Source: a virus. From it: DNA of 64,000 nt. A program made the position numbers and the translations under genes. Position 1 is the first letter of the stretch. Each line of letters starts with the position of its first letter. Below, one piece after another: positions 8,419 to 13,323 of this stretch. The notes below the pieces were generated by a model. It searched no databases. It had not been told where the DNA came from and saw only the letters and a list, made by a program, of their open reading frames with translations. The DNA is taken from positions 1-64,000 of the IMG/VR virus record IMGVR_UViG_3300005468_000016. The stretch is one strand, 5' to 3'.

Positions 8419-8850
8419 TTATTTCTCGTGGCATCGGCGAGGAATCAGATCCAGCCTGCGAATCAGAGGCGGAGGGACGATCTCTGGACACATCGCGGTT
8501 GGCGAAGTGCGGCGGTCCGGATTTCCGGTTGCGAAATGGTTAAAAAGATGATTCCCCATATGATGAAAATGAAGAATCCAGTAACACTCAGCATCATCGC
8601 CAAGTTCACGGGAATCATGCCCGCGTTCAATAATCTTCATTGTGGGAAACTGTCCCCGGCAATGGAGATCATAAATCCACTGTTTTAGTGGATGACGGTC
8701 TCGGTGATACGAGGAGACCGAGATTGCCTCTCGGATATGAGATGTGAATCTGATTTGCGGCGGGGCTCTGGTCAGGCCAACGTATCTGACAACTTCATCT
8801 GGACCAGAAAGAGTATAGACACACCAATCCCTATATGCGTTTCTCTTCAT
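8419..8850 (-). CDS. GIY-YIG nuclease family protein
   Basis: VYTL...VRYVGLT...RFTSH...E..WI...LFN; lower GC than flanks. Confidence 0.75.
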   Translation of the reverse strand: MKRNAYRDWCVYTLSGPDEVVRYVGLTRAPPQIRFTSHIREAISVSSYHRDRHPLKQWIYDLHCRGQFPTMKIIERGHDSRELGDDAECYWILHFHHMGNHLFNHFATGNPDRRTSPTAMCPEIVPPPLIRRLDLIPRRCHEK

Positions 8851-8857
8851 GGGGCAC

Positions 8858-9028
8858 CTACCGTTGAGGTTGAACTACCTGATCCTGCTTATCGCGGACC
8901 ATGCGCCAAGCCTGCGCCACGATCCACCCCGGCGCGCGATCGTTCTTTAGCGCCAAATTCCTGATCTCGTCGGCGATCTGCGGGGGGACGTAGATTTGCA
9001 TCTTCGTCGTGGTCTTCGGCTTGGCCAT
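8858..9028 (-). CDS. Small RHH-type protein (TIGR04563-like), second paralog
   Basis: KMQIYVPPQIADEIRNLALKNDRAPGWIVAQAWRMVR. Confidence 0.7.
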   Translation of the reverse strand: MAKPKTTTKMQIYVPPQIADEIRNLALKNDRAPGWIVAQAWRMVRDKQDQVVQPQR

Positions 9029-9077: not shown

Positions 9078-9590
9078 TGCGGATGCCCCACCCACAACCC
9101 CCGCGCGTTGTCAAGGGGAATTTAGGATGGTGGGGTGGAATTGGTCGGGTGAACCGTCTCGACGCGCTTAAACCCAAGCGCCCGCAGGAAATAGTGCCAC
9201 ATCCTGGTCGGCAAACTTCTCTCGGTCCTGGTCTGTCGTCTTAGTTCGGCTCTATGGCGTGGCGACATTCGATCGATGGAAGGTCCCGGACCATCGCACA
9301 ACCTCAGAGAGCAGGCGGAACACCAGAGCCCTTGGGGATTCAGCGGCGCATTGCACGCGATGCAATTATCACGGTTTAGATTCATGACTCCGTCCCTTCG
9401 TTAGCCACCTGCCGCCCCTCCATCAGCGCCCGCCCTTTCATCTCACAGGCGTGCATTCCGTCCCTGCGATGGTCTTGGATAAAGCCGTTGATCTTCAGAC
9501 CATACGGACGCAGGCGCCACCATCGCTTGCGCTGGTTAAGCAGATCGAACGGCTTGGGATGTCCGCCGCGTGCGTCTTTGTGAGAGCGGG

Positions 9591-9998
9591 TCATGTGCCG
9601 GGGCTCCAGTCACAAAGTACGCCGCCGGGAACCGCAGCCGTCTCGACAGCATCCATTTCGCGTTCGTAATCGGTGCTGTGCCATGCGTCCGACAGCGGCG
9701 CAATCGCGTGCGCTCGCACATCGGAACAATCAGCCAGCCACTCTGAGACATCGATCCGATCTTGCTCCGTCGCGCTGGCCCGCGGCTTATAACTGGTGAT
9801 ATAGAGTCGCGTGGCTTCGCGATTGCTACCGCCACCGCTGTCCAACTCACGCGACTCCAGCCAGATAATGAACTGCTCCAACCAGTCATCATTAACATCC
9901 GGACTCTCGATGTCGGTCCTGGCGTGGGCGGCAAAGACGGTAAAGCCCAATTCGCGAAACTCACCGACACGCTTTTTCTTGCGAAGACGTTTCTTCAC
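9591..9998 (-). CDS. yggL: YggL/DUF469 family ribosome-associated protein
   Basis: MKKRLRKKKRVGEFRELGF N-terminus, GGG, ATEQDR..V..WL...V....L.DAWH. Confidence 0.85.
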   Translation of the reverse strand: MKKRLRKKKRVGEFRELGFTVFAAHARTDIESPDVNDDWLEQFIIWLESRELDSGGGSNREATRLYITSYKPRASATEQDRIDVSEWLADCSDVRAHAIAPLSDAWHSTDYEREMDAVETAAVPGGVLCDWSPGT

Positions 9999-11074
9999 GA
10001 CCGCACCGCCAGCGACTCGGCGATCAGGTCCATGCACAGTTCATTGATGGCCTTGCGATCGGGCGCATGCGGAAGCGTCGAGGTCTTGTAAAGCTCATCC
10101 ATCCGTGCATCCTGTTCCTTGGCCCAGCCGATCAGGCGCTCGTAAGACCATGCCCCGCCGCGAATCGCGAGCAGTTCCTGCGCATTCGGCCGGCGCACAT
10201 GGACCTCGCCCGTAGTTAGGATCTCCTCGCACATCTGCATGAGACGAACGAGGTGCATCCCGTGTTTCGTGTCATAGCCATGCTGGCGCTCAAGTTCCGC
10301 CCTGGCCTCATTGCGCCCGCTCTGCCACTGCCGGTAAGCGTCCCACTCGCGGCGCTTGGTGATGTAGTGCCGCTCACGGTCGAGCAGGTCGAGAAAGTTG
10401 GAATCAAGGCCCAGCACGCGCCCCGCGGCGAGCATTCTCTCATCGTCGGTCGCCGCTTTGATCTCGGTCAGGGTCTTGACGACGTTGTCGCGCATTTCGA
10501 TCTGCGCGGCGGGGTCGAGCACGTCCACGCCAAAAGTTGGTAGCGCGTTCTCCCAGGCTTCCACTTGCTTGCGCATGATCGCTTCTGCGGCGGCAAGTTG
10601 ATCCTTGGGAATCACAGTGCGCTCGGGGAGGCCGAAGTCTGCGCGGACGGGTGGCGCTTCGGGTGGATTCAGCAGCCATCGCCGATGGCTCTCGATGCGC
10701 TTCATCTGCGACATCGCGTAGCCCGAAAAAGTGAACTTGGCCTTCTTGCTCATGAACATCCGTCGGGCCGCGCGTAGTCTCTGCCCCAAGGGCGTGACCG
10801 TGATCACGTCCGCATCGTCGGTAAAGACAATCTCGATGATGTTCGGGTTGCAGTCAGCAGCGAGGGCCAGATACTTCCGGAGTTCATAGACAACGACATC
10901 TGGATCGCCCTTCTGTTCGTACTGCTCGACGCGGTTCATCCCGAGGACGCAATCGCGCGGCGGCACCATCACGCCACGAACATCGCGGTCAGAGGTGGGC
11001 GTAGCAGTCCCGTAGGCGTGGCTGCCCGCGTTCACAAGCAGGATGGTGTTGGCATCGACGGTGCTACGCTCCAT
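9995..11074 (-). CDS. Pol-beta superfamily nucleotidyltransferase (PF10127 / RlaP-YcgL-like)
   Basis: GSHAYGTATPTSDRDVRG, CNPNIIE, FSGYA..Q, GYDTKHGMHLVRL, LLAIRGG, STLPHAPD. Confidence 0.9.
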   Translation of the reverse strand: MERSTVDANTILLVNAGSHAYGTATPTSDRDVRGVMVPPRDCVLGMNRVEQYEQKGDPDVVVYELRKYLALAADCNPNIIEIVFTDDADVITVTPLGQRLRAARRMFMSKKAKFTFSGYAMSQMKRIESHRRWLLNPPEAPPVRADFGLPERTVIPKDQLAAAEAIMRKQVEAWENALPTFGVDVLDPAAQIEMRDNVVKTLTEIKAATDDERMLAAGRVLGLDSNFLDLLDRERHYITKRREWDAYRQWQSGRNEARAELERQHGYDTKHGMHLVRLMQMCEEILTTGEVHVRRPNAQELLAIRGGAWSYERLIGWAKEQDARMDELYKTSTLPHAPDRKAINELCMDLIAESLAVRS

Positions 11075-12281
11075 GTTCGACCTCGCTTCCAAGTGCGCGG
11101 GTTATCGCTGCCGCCCGACGAGCGCGGATGTGTAGCCCGATGTCGGGACCTACAAGGCTCTCGGGAATCTCACCGATCGCCGTCTCTCTCACGACCTTAG
11201 CGAGCGACCGCAGCAGCGCCGGGCCGTTGCTGTTCTTGGCGGGGATGCGTCCAAGTCCATCGGCTTCTGCGACATCGGCCAGCCCTTCCGCTTTCAGGAT
11301 GCCGCGATCCGCCGCGATGATGATGTCCACCTTGCGCGTGTTCCGCATTTCTGCGAACCGATGGACATTCAGGTGTTCGGCGCTGGCCAAGCAGCAGGCA
11401 CTTCGCAATTGCTTCGGCAACCCCAGACGCTCACACAGGGCCATGATGGGTTCTGTGCCCGCGTCTTCGTGGCCAAGGTGGCGCGGTAGCAGTTCGGGCG
11501 CAGTCTTGGCCTTGCCGAGATCATGCAGCAGCGCCGCGACCCGCACATTGACATCCTGGGATAGTCGCGCCGCTTCGCGCAGGACCATCAGGGTATGTGT
11601 CAGGGCATCACCTTCGCCGTGATGCTGCGGCGGTCCAGCCGGAACACCGGCAAGGTCCGCAAGTTCGCCGAAATGGATGTCAAGGTTCCAGGTGTCGCGC
11701 AGAAGTTCGATGAACCGATGCGGCTGGGCGCTGGCCATCGCCCGCAAGAACTCAACCCGTACCCGCTCTCTGGACTCCCCGGCGATCTCGTCGCGAGGCA
11801 TGTTCTTGCAGAGTTCGACGGTTTCCCCGGCTACATCGAAGCCTAACTGCGCGGCGAACCTGGCCAGTCGGTAGATGCGCAGAGGATCGTCTGAGAACGC
11901 GGCGCTCGTATGCCGAAGCATGCGGTTCGTGAGGTCCTGCGCGCCATTGAACGGGTCGTGAAGATCGCCGTTCTCATCGATCGCCATCGCGTTGATGGTC
12001 AGGTCGCGCCGAGACAGGTCTTGCTCTAGCGTTACCTCGGGTCCGAACTCGACGGAAAAGCCCTGATGTCCGCGCCCCGTCTTCGTCTCCCGGCGGGCCA
12101 GCGCGACCTCGCCAACGTCCGGCACAAGATAAACCGGAAACGCTTTGCCGACGCATTGAGCCGACGGCCAGCGCTGCATGATATCGGCCTCGGTTGCGCC
12201 CACGGCGAGGAAATCCTTATCCTTCGCCTCTCGACCGAGCAAACGATCGCGGACGGCGCCACCGACAAGGTAGAGTTTCAC
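11064..12281 (-). CDS. cca: Multifunctional CCA-adding tRNA nucleotidyltransferase with HD phosphatase domain
   Basis: YLVGGAVRD..LG...KDKD, ALAR.E.K.GRGH.GF, DLSRRDLTINAMA, DDPLRIYRLARF, HH.EGD...HT, LLHDLGK. Confidence 0.95.
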   Translation of the reverse strand: MKLYLVGGAVRDRLLGREAKDKDFLAVGATEADIMQRWPSAQCVGKAFPVYLVPDVGEVALARRETKTGRGHQGFSVEFGPEVTLEQDLSRRDLTINAMAIDENGDLHDPFNGAQDLTNRMLRHTSAAFSDDPLRIYRLARFAAQLGFDVAGETVELCKNMPRDEIAGESRERVRVEFLRAMASAQPHRFIELLRDTWNLDIHFGELADLAGVPAGPPQHHGEGDALTHTLMVLREAARLSQDVNVRVAALLHDLGKAKTAPELLPRHLGHEDAGTEPIMALCERLGLPKQLRSACCLASAEHLNVHRFAEMRNTRKVDIIIAADRGILKAEGLADVAEADGLGRIPAKNSNGPALLRSLAKVVRETAIGEIPESLVGPDIGLHIRARRAAAITRALGSEVEHGA

Positions 12282-12469
12282 GACCGCACCGCCTGCCGCT
12301 TCGGCTTCGATTCGCCGACGATCTGCGCCCTGGCGATCTTCCACGCGGTGGCAACAAGCGACGAGTAACTGCGCCCTTGCTGTAGTTTGGAGACGGCCTT
12401 GATATCTTTTTCGACATCAGGGGGAAGTCGGAGGTTCATGGTGATGTTCCCTAGTTGCTTGCGACCCAT
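12278..12469 (-). CDS. Small RHH-type protein (TIGR04563-like), third paralog
   Basis: MNLRLPPDVEKDIKAVS...RSYSSLVATAWKIARAQI; the start may be the internal Met. Confidence 0.7.
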   Translation of the reverse strand: MGRKQLGNITMNLRLPPDVEKDIKAVSKLQQGRSYSSLVATAWKIARAQIVGESKPKRQAVRS

Positions 12470-12496
12470 GATGCACCGTTGCGCCATCAGGCGCAA
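12467..12496 (-). promoter_or_regulatory. Putative promoter with palindromic operator for the cca operon
   Basis: TTGCGC-17-CATCAT; perfect palindrome TTGCGCC-ATCA-GGCGCAA (12479-12496). Confidence 0.55.
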
Positions 12497-12530
12497 GAAA
12501 AAAGATCGTCATCTCCGCCAGCGTCGGCGG

Positions 12531-13007
12531 TTAAGGGGAATCTGGCAACTCGGCGTCATATTTCACGCGTGCCATCTTCTCCATGCACTCGGGCAGTCGA
12601 GCCAGCCAGCCCTTGTGAGGTCCGTCGGTGTGGCGTTCTAAGATGCGCCCGCGTCCTCGGGGACCAAACAGGACACACACCGACCGCCCATCCAGCGACT
12701 GGGCCAGGAACCGACAACACATCGGCGGCGCCATGAGAGCGCATGTCGTATCGCCAGCGCCCCGGAGAACCAGCGGGGCCGAGTTAGCCAGGTTTGCCAC
12801 CCTGGTCAGTCCACCGCGTCGCCCAATCTCGGCCATGTGGGCGCGATCCTGCGAACAGGCAGCGCCGCCCAGTCGCCCAGCTTCGCGGGCAGCGTCAAGA
12901 TCCCATTCGTGCGCCTTGCCCATGGTGTGAGCCGCCCGCCCGCCTTGTGATGCAATGGCGGCGCGTTGCTCTGGCGACATGACGGCGAATCCGCGGGGCT
13001 TGCTCAC
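12531..13007 (-). CDS. KGG-repeat stress-induced protein fused to a Cys-containing C-terminal region
   Basis: RGFAVMSPEQRAAIASQGG, AREAGRLGG, HMAEIGRRGG repeats. Confidence 0.8.
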   Translation of the reverse strand: MSKPRGFAVMSPEQRAAIASQGGRAAHTMGKAHEWDLDAAREAGRLGGAACSQDRAHMAEIGRRGGLTRVANLANSAPLVLRGAGDTTCALMAPPMCCRFLAQSLDGRSVCVLFGPRGRGRILERHTDGPHKGWLARLPECMEKMARVKYDAELPDSP

Positions 13008-13323
13008 GACCGCTCCCCGTAATAATCGATCGTCGGCGGCAGGATGTGGATGTAACGCCCCGCGACTTGGATCGGGTCCGGAAATTCTTGAACGCGCTTG
13101 CCAGTGTAGCCGCACTCGCGACAGCCCCCCGATCCATGAGAGCATCCCCCAAATTCGCTGCAATCACATGAGCAGCCCGAGCATGCGAGCGTGCATCGTT
13201 CCCGCGTAGCCAACTCGCCATCGAAGCCTAGTTCGTACACCTTGCGCCAGTCGAGCCGATGCCGCAGAACCGCCCGCCGAATCTTGGCGCGGACGGGGCC
13301 TTTCGCGGCGATGCGGACGTGGG

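Follow-up and report, generated by a model that had tools for sequence, protein, structure and literature searches.

Among the end-restoring nucleotidyltransferases of jumbo phages, RlaP and CCA-adding enzymes are listed as the most frequent (PMC7824862). RlaP adds 1-2 NMP to the 3′-OH of an RNA, requires that 3′-OH, and prefers damaged tRNA (10.64898/2025.12.29.696909); the 1-2 NMP addition has been demonstrated for Pseudomonas RlaP enzymes only. The published RlaP work concerns breaks in the anticodon loop that are then ligated, not acceptor ends, and the repair systems in which RlaP is known, namely the RtcB-RlaP-RtcA operons of Pseudomonas, RlaP together with Pnkp/Rnl ligases, and T4 NrdC.11, mend internal breaks and depend on a ligase. 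CCA enzymes use their HD domains to remove 2′,3′-cyclic phosphates, according to a passage of PMC10673834 that cites Yakunin 2004, and the tRNA-end toxin MenT3 is countered when a CCA enzyme is overexpressed (PMC11541572). Bacterial immunity targets tRNA ends in several ways: Cas12a3 cuts back the tails of tRNAs as far as the discriminator base (PMC12851939), MenT-type toxins extend the tail, and HEPN toxins act there as well. Phages that carry cca and rlaP as a pair, on the same strand and usually with cca first, include members of the Vequintavirinae (Cronobacter phage CR9, Salmonella phage PVPSE1 and Escherichia phage Av-05), Vibrio phage D181 and many IMG/VR contigs, often with no RNA ligase nearby.

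Here we describe such a pair in a 64-kb window (the whole stretch of DNA that was analysed), which is part of a 92-kb viral record. The pair lies among co-directional minus-strand genes in the order RHH1-cca-rlaP-yggL, followed by two small open reading frames:

12278-12439, minus strand: RHH1, the operon's lead gene; predicted 53-aa ribbon-helix-helix protein, CdbA-like
11064-12281, minus strand: cca; predicted class II CCA-adding enzyme (405 aa) of the multifunctional type known from E. coli, its C-terminal HD phosphohydrolase domain intact
9995-11074, minus strand: rlaP; predicted 359-aa Pol-beta nucleotidyltransferase, PF10127
9591-9998, minus strand: yggL; predicted 135-aa DUF469/YggL 50S-binding family protein, PF04320
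9382-9594, minus strand: orf70; 70-aa protein, with an ATGA overlap with yggL in the sequence
9122-9385, minus strand: orf87, the unit's last gene; 87-aa CxxC...CxxC zinc-ribbon-like protein, with an ATGA overlap with orf70

The first-pass annotation had proposed a cassette at 9591-12496 made of four overlapping or translationally coupled genes. The coupling is borne out by the junctions: a GTGA is common to the RHH1 stop and the cca start, cca runs 11 nt into rlaP, and a second GTGA is common to the rlaP stop and the yggL start. The genes begin at ATG 12439 (RHH1, the 53-aa call from this codon agreeing with the gene callers), GTG 12281 (cca), ATG 11074 (rlaP) and GTG 9998 (yggL). The proposed identities of cca, rlaP and yggL stand by Pfam and that of the lead gene by profile and fold, but the end at 9591 does not: orf70 and orf87 continue by ATGA overlaps, and the unit therefore comprises six genes ending at 9122, not four ending at 9591. 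Downstream of orf87, at about 9114, lie a TTGACA promoter-like site and the RHH2 gene. Searches of Pfam, PHROG and NCBIfam found no family match for orf70, which has no usable Atlas match either, and for orf87 the Atlas gives only sub-threshold leads, to viral small Zn-ribbon clusters. The GC3 of all six genes is inside the genome range and is uninformative as a compositional test of recent acquisition. None of the cassette proteins matched a defence system in PADLOC, a near-identity search of 50,697 phage records with the cassette DNA gave no match, and none of the approximately 300 loci surveyed for close relatives of the whole phage has more than three genes in common with it.

Cca passes the cut-offs of all three of its Pfam domains (PF01743, PF12627 and PF01966), with matches to the PolyA_pol head (5.9e-21), the RNA-binding domain PolyA_pol_RNAbd (3.4e-07) and HD (9.6e-09), the last at residues 248-347 of a 426-aa ORF. 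Like the E. coli multifunctional Cca (NF008137) it is collinear over its full length (373.3 bits, protein 1-397 against profile 1-404 of 409); unlike it, the protein is phage-borne, stays below the equivalog cut-off of 451 bits and is closest to phage copies, matching phrog_2244 at 6.4e-103 and sharing 43-49% identity with other phage ccas against 33-38% with ccas of myxobacterial genomes. The head motifs GGAVRD, DKD, RRDLTINA and DDPLR are all present in alignment to 1MIV, with R92, D93, T95, N97, D132 and R135 invariant in alignment A4. The HD motif HHGEGD...HDLGK can be read in the translation, and H221, E223, D225, H229, H253 and D254 are likewise invariant in A4. The sequence places Cca among the HD-bearing class II CCA-adding enzymes and predicts exact C-C-A addition. 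RlaP matches PF10127 at 1.1e-26 (94.5 bits against a cut-off of 23), a match confined to the N-terminal half of the profile, the nucleotidyltransferase part (17-142 of 249), and matches phrog_388 over its full length (9.1e-69). G17-S18, D29 and D31 do not vary among 20 viral homologues, and E81 hardly does; the protein thus shares with the RlaPs of the known repair systems the GS...DxD motif and a third acidic residue, and addition of 1-2 NMP is predicted for it as well. Those systems rely on ligation, whereas the phage cassette pairs RlaP with a CCA-adding enzyme.

Both GTGA junctions carry a copy of a perfect 17-bp direct repeat:

12277-12293, minus strand: repeat copy 1, GGCGGTGCGGTCGTGAA, at the RHH1/cca junction
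9994-10010, minus strand: repeat copy 2, at the rlaP/yggL junction

The two copies bracket exactly cca and rlaP, which distinguishes this pair from the known phage pairs. The 64-kb window holds two exact copies and one with 2 mismatches, where 0.05 would be expected. The repeat belongs to a wider junction motif, GCGGTCGTGA, that is present at several gene junctions in the phage, and we rejected the idea of a unique insertion scar, since this motif is reused at junctions and the two copies are its longest pair. Single matches to the 17-mer in 51 IMG/VR contigs were set aside as chance, as none of these contigs encodes a cassette protein. The arrangement suggests that cca-rlaP may have entered, or may be able to leave, as a two-gene block via recombination at a reused junction sequence.

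The operon had further been described as autoregulated, with one promoter and a palindromic operator, and this part of the first-pass annotation did not hold up. Two elements can be recognised upstream of RHH1:

12498-12530, minus strand: terminator-like element; hairpins CCGCC-N6-GGCGG (12515-12530) and AGAT-N4-ATCT (12503-12514), then a T6 run
12468-12496, minus strand: weak promoter-like site, read by eye; TTGCGC (12496-12491), a 17-nt spacer and CATCAT (12473-12468)

A scan with the sigma-70 consensus found no promoter on the minus strand, which leaves only the weak site. The palindrome TGCGC-N6-GCGCA (12480-12495), which sits inside its 17-nt spacer, has arms of 5 bp, and such a palindrome is present in 19% of random 60-nt windows of the same genome, which is chance level. 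A palindrome at chance level, and a lead gene that resembles the CdbA nucleoid proteins, leave autoregulation unsupported. The hairpin upstream of RHH1 was also considered as an operator and rejected, since the T-run after it fits a terminator of the upstream gene better. The element at 12498-12530, with a predicted fold of -11.5 kcal/mol, was not picked up by the terminator scan; it reads better as the terminator-like end of the upstream KGG-repeat gene, and would mark the start of a separate transcription unit.

Two different nucleotidyltransferases in one phage operon had been taken for an unrecognised arrangement, but the pair is recurrent and has already been discussed for jumbo phages (PMC7824862). 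Of 80 IMG/VR cca loci in our survey of gene neighbourhoods, 13 had rlaP within 10 kb; in 11 of these it followed cca on the same strand, and in 9 it lay within 2.3 kb. In unrelated phages whose GC contents range from 34% to 70% (loci L005, L020, L246 and L286) the two genes overlap or lie directly side by side, the overlap being 10 nt in L246 and 4 nt in L020, and they are 2-3 kb apart in Vequintavirinae and Vibrio phage D181. Strand, order and distance show that across unrelated phages the pairing is clearly not random. It is also far from obligatory: in most phages rlaP stands without cca, about 46 kb separates the two genes on the single contig (L223/L053) of the phage whose cca is closest, and among the 80 closest viral rlaP loci cca lies within 10 kb at 5, PNK at 26 and RNA ligase at 15. 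Elsewhere the gene partners are RNA-repair genes, namely RtcB, the cyclic-phosphate cREC domain, PTH2-like proteins, PNK and Rnl. Beyond this cassette, neither 80 bacterial yggL loci nor the one other viral yggL contig showed yggL linked to cca or rlaP. The PTH2-like protein that is common in enterobacterial phages with cca-rlaP is absent from this cassette, and, unlike the known pairs, cca-rlaP here shares a coupled unit of six genes with a lead gene resembling cdbA, with yggL and with two small ORFs.

We hold it to be somewhat probable, from the domain content and the neighbourhoods, that cca-rlaP would act as a ligase-independent module restoring damaged tRNA 3′ tails and keeping phage protein translation going. 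Unlike T4-type tRNA repair (Pnkp + Rnl1), for which a polynucleotide kinase-phosphatase and an RNA ligase are required components, the 92-kb record yielded no RNA ligase, the linkage to which gave the RlaP family its name, no Rnl and no PNK (tblastn and PF09414, whole record), and no canonical tRNA (ARAGORN), which argues for a ligase-free rebuilding of tRNA 3′ tails; since the record is about 70% complete (CheckV), ligase, PNK or tRNA genes could sit in the missing part. The operon would be an early or accessory one, its six genes coupled in translation. A nuclease or toxin of the host would clip or block the acceptor end, for example by trimming the tail by 2-4 nt up to the discriminator base, by leaving a 2′,3′-cyclic or 3′ phosphate, or by causing terminal nucleotides to be added or lost; the HD domain of Cca would then take off the phosphate, and in the last step the CCA would be rebuilt by the Cca head domain. 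A compact, ligase-free module of this kind would be a phage countermeasure to tRNA-end attack, and the present instance would be a clean, tightly coupled version of it in a phage without canonical tRNA genes. The RNA or tRNA 3′-end repair put forward for both enzymes in the first-pass annotation fits RlaP biochemistry (10.64898/2025.12.29.696909) and the recurrent cca/rlaP linkage; no functional link of YggL to the enzymes was found.

The enzymes might instead serve the phage's own RNAs, with Cca, and perhaps RlaP, maturing or maintaining two tRNA-like RNAs at 36600-36750 or topping up the tRNA pool. Both RNAs are detectable, each below the Rfam thresholds. The one at 36600-36659, which had been noted before as a CCA-less tRNA mimic at 36603-36659 and is indeed present, has the tmRNA tRNA-like domain as its only match (E 2.5e-07), contains a G3:U70 pair and ends in CUA, not CCA; the other, at 36664-36750, reaches 30 bits with the tRNA-Sec model and ends in CCA. 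An RNA without an encoded CCA would suit such a role, as would the tRNA genes within 10 kb at 19 of 80 viral cca loci and the finding that depletion of the CCA enzyme in mycobacteria also affects tmRNA maturation (PMC10673834). The two RNAs are, however, 24 kb off in a different transcription unit, ARAGORN calls zero tRNAs in 92 kb, the job is normally done by the host CCA enzyme, and maturation leaves RlaP and the recurrent cca-rlaP pair unexplained, so we regard this reading as unlikely. That both nucleotidyltransferases tail host RNAs for decay or inactivation, a means of host takeover and not of repair, strikes us as very improbable: the class II superfamily does include poly(A) polymerases, the cca head weakly matches PcnB models and RlaP accepts generic RNA 3′-OH ends in vitro, but the full-length best match of Cca is the CCA addition/repair equivalog, with an HD domain that is missing from poly(A) polymerases, RlaP stops at 1-2 nucleotides, and the partners in other phages are repair enzymes.

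There may also be no joint pathway at all, the six genes being independent accessory genes packed by genome economy, with a recently captured YggL that acts alone on ribosomes; overlaps and a common operon would then carry no information on shared function. This would agree with the lack of any other link of yggL to cca or rlaP, with the GTGA/ATGA junctions and their GCGGTCGTGA motif, which also join unrelated genes in this phage, and with the many phages that have rlaP without cca. Against it, the cca/rlaP pair is non-random across unrelated phages, and the GC3 of the six genes matches the genome, so that none looks freshly acquired; we consider it fairly unlikely. Under the tail-repair reading YggL, orf70 and orf87 would be co-expressed passengers or accessory factors; for none of the three did a supporting linkage turn up elsewhere.

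What is unusual in the operon is the presence of YggL, which is nearly absent from phages, and of the CdbA-like lead gene. E. coli YggL is a 50S/70S ribosome-binding factor, the only YggL for which ribosome binding is known (PMC7498339). Like it, the phage protein is a full-length PF04320 member (YggL_50S_bp, 1.3e-18; 68.2 bits against a cut-off of 27; profile 1-102 of 102) with a conserved N-terminal basic motif, MKKRLRKKKRVGEFRE, invariant among homologues in alignment A2; unlike it, it is phage-encoded and has a C-terminal extension of about 25 aa, and it scores 39 bits against the 115 of the NCBIfam equivalog NF008685. The AF2 model (pLDDT 81.5) has a ferredoxin-like fold, for which a search of the PDB returned generic ferredoxin-like matches only (ribosomal S6, EF-1beta; E above 0.001), and these therefore give no functional clue. 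The nearest cellular homologues, from Planctomycetaceae and Myxococcales, are 38-44% identical. No PHROG family and no match in 50,697 phage records were found, and a single other IMG/VR contig has a homologue. Near yggL on that contig and at 80 bacterial loci there was no cca, rlaP, PNK or ligase, and the neighbours of the closest bacterial yggL genes belong to no informative families. In E. coli the trmB stop overlaps the yggL start, a translational coupling to a tRNA enzyme that is absent from 80 other yggL loci. The most plausible target of the phage protein is the 50S/70S ribosome of its host. That it is a working part of the module, acting with the repair enzymes at the large subunit or handing them damaged or uncharged tRNAs, we think improbable; if true, YggL would in general be a tRNA-linked factor, as would fit the trmB-yggL coupling, and the cassette would be a first way into what this widely conserved ribosome-binding protein does at the molecular level. 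Its co-expression is a possible, unproven lead to that function.

RHH1, which has no Pfam match, is a ribbon-helix-helix protein by profile and predicted fold. A profile of RHH1 with two homologues and two paralogues (A3) matches CdbA in PDB 6SBW at E 1.9e-16, against E near 0.01 for Arc and Mnt; alone, RHH1 scores 20 bits with the CdbA-family model TIGR04563 (cut-off 65). Its AF2 model (pLDDT 71) is strand-helix-helix, with an N-terminal extended segment and helices at 7-19 and 25-42. The two known homologues (P0019, P0020) are 65-76% identical, and no relatives were found in JGI metagenome contigs. RHH1 resembles CdbA/CdbB of Myxococcus xanthus (PDB 6SBW; PMC7156744) in its fold and through the strong match of the A3 profile, and differs from CdbA in being phage-encoded, in heading an operon and in the residues needed for c-di-GMP binding (K8, S10, R27 and R30; PMC7156744), of which the alignment retains the R30 equivalent only. 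As the DNA-binding first gene, it could have a regulatory role. The CdbA family has been reported from Myxococcales only (PMC7156744), which points to a myxobacterial host, and the phage is probably myxobacterial; myxobacteria would then be hosts where a tRNA-end conflict may exist. To our knowledge, no tRNA-tail-targeting defence has been described in the presumed host. The region contains three RHH paralogues, each heading a unit, and the one at 678-848 retains three of the four c-di-GMP residues and is preceded by a similar T-run plus CTTGC.

The cassette comes from a 92,075-bp IMG/VR virus record, of which the window is the first 64 kb and which CheckV estimates to be about 70% complete. 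The first-pass annotation had described four genes, RHH, cca (HD), an RlaP-like nucleotidyltransferase and yggL, that overlap or are coupled in translation, and on the minus strand both the frames and the families (by Pfam, PHROG and a profile built on the lead gene) match this description, as do the overlaps read at the junctions and listed below. The unit had been closed at 9591; however, two further small genes with ATGA overlaps carry it on to 9122, and only past that point does a new unit open, marked by a promoter-like TTGACA and by another small RHH gene, so the cassette comprises six coupled genes from 12439 to 9122.

Genes of the cassette
12278-12439, minus strand: RHH1, small CdbA-like lead gene, 53 aa from ATG 12439 (identical product from the gene callers of public collections)
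start GTG 12281, minus strand: cca, CCA-adding enzyme gene, GTGA overlap with the RHH1 stop
start ATG 11074, minus strand: rlaP, PF10127 nucleotidyltransferase gene, 11-nt overlap with cca
start GTG 9998, minus strand: yggL, PF04320 gene, GTGA overlap at the rlaP/yggL junction
9382-9594, minus strand: orf70, ATGA overlap
9122-9385, minus strand: orf87, Zn-ribbon-like (CxxC...CxxC), ATGA overlap

In Pfam, the cca product carries a PolyA_pol head (5.9e-21), an RNA-binding domain (3.4e-07) and an HD domain (9.6e-09), the rlaP product matches PF10127 RlaP (1.1e-26; also PHROG family phrog_388 at 9.1e-69), and the yggL product matches YggL/DUF469 over the full profile (1.3e-18, positions 1-102 of 102).

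While the genes and their coupling are real, the single promoter and palindromic operator once placed in front of them are not borne out. A consensus scan found no sigma-70-type promoter on the minus strand, which leaves at most TTGCGC-17-CATCAT at 12496-12468, read by eye; before it lie two small hairpins and a T6 run, which look like a terminator belonging to the upstream KGG-repeat gene. The palindrome, TGCGC-N6-GCGCA, has no evidential weight because 19% of random 60-nt windows from the phage genome contain one of equal size.

The lead gene has no Pfam match. When RHH1, two homologues from metagenomes (65-76% identity) and the window's two paralogues (8858-9028 and 678-848) are combined in a profile, it matches the crystal structure of CdbA from Myxococcus xanthus (6SBW) with an E value of 1.9e-16, against values near 0.01 for Arc and Mnt, and the AlphaFold model has the strand-helix-helix pattern at a pLDDT of 71. 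The profile and the model support a DNA-binding protein as the probable product of this first gene; the autoregulation that had been ascribed to it is not established by such a match. CdbA itself is essential, associates with the nucleoid and acts as a receptor for c-di-GMP; its family has been reported from Myxococcales only (PMC7156744). One of its four c-di-GMP-binding residues (K8, S10, R27 and R30) is kept in RHH1, and three (K8, R27 and R30) in the paralogue at 678-848. The CdbA-like lead gene supports a myxobacterial host, and Myxococcales are also among the sources of the closest cellular homologues of YggL. The CdbA-family paralogues at 12278-12439, 8858-9028 and 678-848 are all on the minus strand and each heads a minus-strand unit; a CCATGG-N13-CCATGG repeat lies 5′ of the one at 678-848.

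A perfect 17-bp repeat, GGCGGTGCGGTCGTGAA, stands at both GTGA junctions with exactly cca and rlaP in between, where 0.05 matches would be expected. Of a junction motif, GCGGTCGTGA, it forms the longest pair; the motif is composed of an SD-like G-run, codons for ..RS-stop and a GTG start that overlaps. On the window's minus strand the motif has five occurrences against 0.36 expected, with copies at 9995, 12278, 13004 and 34515, and it is also present at 74634 in the genome beyond the window. At 13004, 34515 and 74634 it joins unrelated genes. We read the motif as a junction that serves repeatedly for coupling and recombination and by which the cca-rlaP block could move. GC3 shows no trace of a recent arrival. 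The phage cca is 43-49% identical to other phage copies as compared with 33-38% to CCA enzymes encoded in myxobacterial genomes, so it is a phage-lineage gene and not a fresh host capture. The motif also places the start of the KGG-repeat gene at GTG 13007 and not at 13163.

Two nucleotidyltransferases plus YggL in one phage operon had been called an unrecognised arrangement, but the nucleotidyltransferase pair is already named in the literature and recurs in phages. Among the end-restoring nucleotidyltransferases of jumbo phages, RlaP and the CCA-adding enzyme are named as the two commonest by Iyer et al. 2021 (PMC7824862). The best phage matches for Cca and RlaP are in Vequintavirinae and one Vibrio phage, where the two genes lie 2-3 kb apart on a single strand among Thg1-like, PTH2-like, RNA ligase and PNK genes. 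A gene-neighbourhood survey in IMG/VR, with a 10 kb radius for cca and rlaP, found their co-occurrence recurrent but no yggL at the 80 rlaP loci closest to ours. At those loci, cca was within 10 kb in 5/80, with PNK in 26/80 and RNA ligase in 15/80; among 80 cca loci, rlaP was within 10 kb in 13 (downstream on the same strand in 11, within 2.3 kb in 9), with PNK in one and ligase in two. Phages in which the two genes directly overlap range in GC content from 34% to 70% (L246, L020, L286 and L005).

Comparison loci from viral contigs
L246: cca then rlaP, 10-nt overlap
L020:9546-12363: cyclic-phosphate cREC domain, rlaP, cca
L286:7070-11299, GC-70% phage: RtcB (713 aa, two matched stretches), rlaP-like gene, cca
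L299:10001-13187: cca, PTH2-like protein, small ORF, rlaP

These counts, and overlapping pairs in such varied phages, make cca-rlaP a recurrent, non-obligatory two-gene module in RNA-repair company. In L005:2772-9827, on a 39-kb IMG/VR contig, cca is frameshifted at the HD domain, rlaP encodes 781 aa with a LAGLIDADG-like insertion, and a family-B DNA polymerase gene is split in two, with both of these genes between its parts. A near-identity search of 50,697 phage records and a comparison of about 300 loci gave no close relatives of the phage.

The whole length of Cca aligns with NCBIfam NF008137 ('multifunctional CCA addition/repair protein') at 373 bits, under the 451-bit equivalog cut-off, and Cca has every head motif and the HD motif. 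In an alignment of homologues, RlaP keeps G17-S18, D29 and D31, and E81 is nearly invariant. According to a December 2025 preprint (10.64898/2025.12.29.696909), the RlaP enzymes of Pseudomonas add one or two NMP to an RNA 3′-OH, which must be free, and prefer damaged tRNA, and T4 NrdC.11 belongs to the same family. CCA enzymes use their HD domains to remove 2′,3′-cyclic phosphates (PMC10673834, citing Yakunin 2004). The best-supported reading, by homology and by analogy with the published enzymology of relatives, is a ligase-free repair of tRNA 3′ tails, in which the HD domain of Cca would clear cyclic or 3′ phosphates, RlaP would supply one or two missing nucleotides and the Cca head would rebuild CCA; each step has such a precedent, and their combination is inferred. 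The RNA 3′-end repair proposed by the first-pass annotation is thus reasonable, but already current for this pair. RNA ligase, PNK and canonical tRNA genes are absent from the 92 kb of this roughly 70%-complete record.

Cas12a3, MenT-type and HEPN-type effectors are plausible candidate attackers of tRNA tails; to our knowledge, Cas12a3, MenT toxins and the HEPN toxin are not known in the presumed host. Songailiene et al. reportedly described in 2020 a HEPN toxin that takes 4 nt off tRNA 3′ ends. Cas12a3 (PMC12851939) trims tRNA tails as far as the discriminator base, by 2-4 nt, and MenT toxins extend them, which an overexpressed CCA enzyme counters (PMC11541572).

A substrate might also be encoded by the phage, which has two tRNA-like RNAs that ARAGORN and the Rfam gathering thresholds miss and that are detectable below those thresholds.

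tRNA-like RNAs
36664-36750, minus strand: tRNA-Sec model at 30 bits, perfect T-arm, ends in CCA
36600-36659, minus strand: 60 nt, matches the tRNA-like domain of tmRNA only (E 2.5e-07), G3:U70, ends in CUA, not CCA

It is possible that the cassette cca matures the CUA-ending RNA, although a host CCA enzyme could serve instead.

What is new is solely the presence of a co-translated YggL, along with the two small genes beside it and the CdbA-like first gene, a combination seen once. The cassette YggL has no PHROG family, a search of 50,697 records with it or with E. coli YggL gave no true phage match, and motif-based scans of IMG/VR found one other contig with a homologue, a 459-kb megaphage (L004:5971-6315), where the genes around yggL encode an AAA ATPase, a DnaJ-type zinc finger and a VWA/metallopeptidase (DUF2201). 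The neighbours of the closest yggL homologues are uninformative, and within 6 kb of yggL at 80 bacterial loci there are no relatives of cca, rlaP, PNK or ligase. In E. coli, YggL binds 50S/70S, and free 50S rises when YggL is lost (PMC7498339). In E. coli K-12, the stop of trmB, the tRNA m7G46 methyltransferase gene, overlaps the yggL start by one base (L303:3808-4853; NC_000913.3 3101807-3102852), a coupling absent from 80 yggL loci (Akkermansia, Myxococcales, Planctomycetes and others). The predicted fold of the cassette YggL is a generic ferredoxin-like domain.

Farther along the minus strand, at 8419-8850, lies a 143-aa ORF with a GIY-YIG-looking N-terminus and no family match; with a GC of 0.49 against 0.61 for the genome and a GC3 of 0.47 against 0.70, it could be a homing-endonuclease-like gene of recent arrival.
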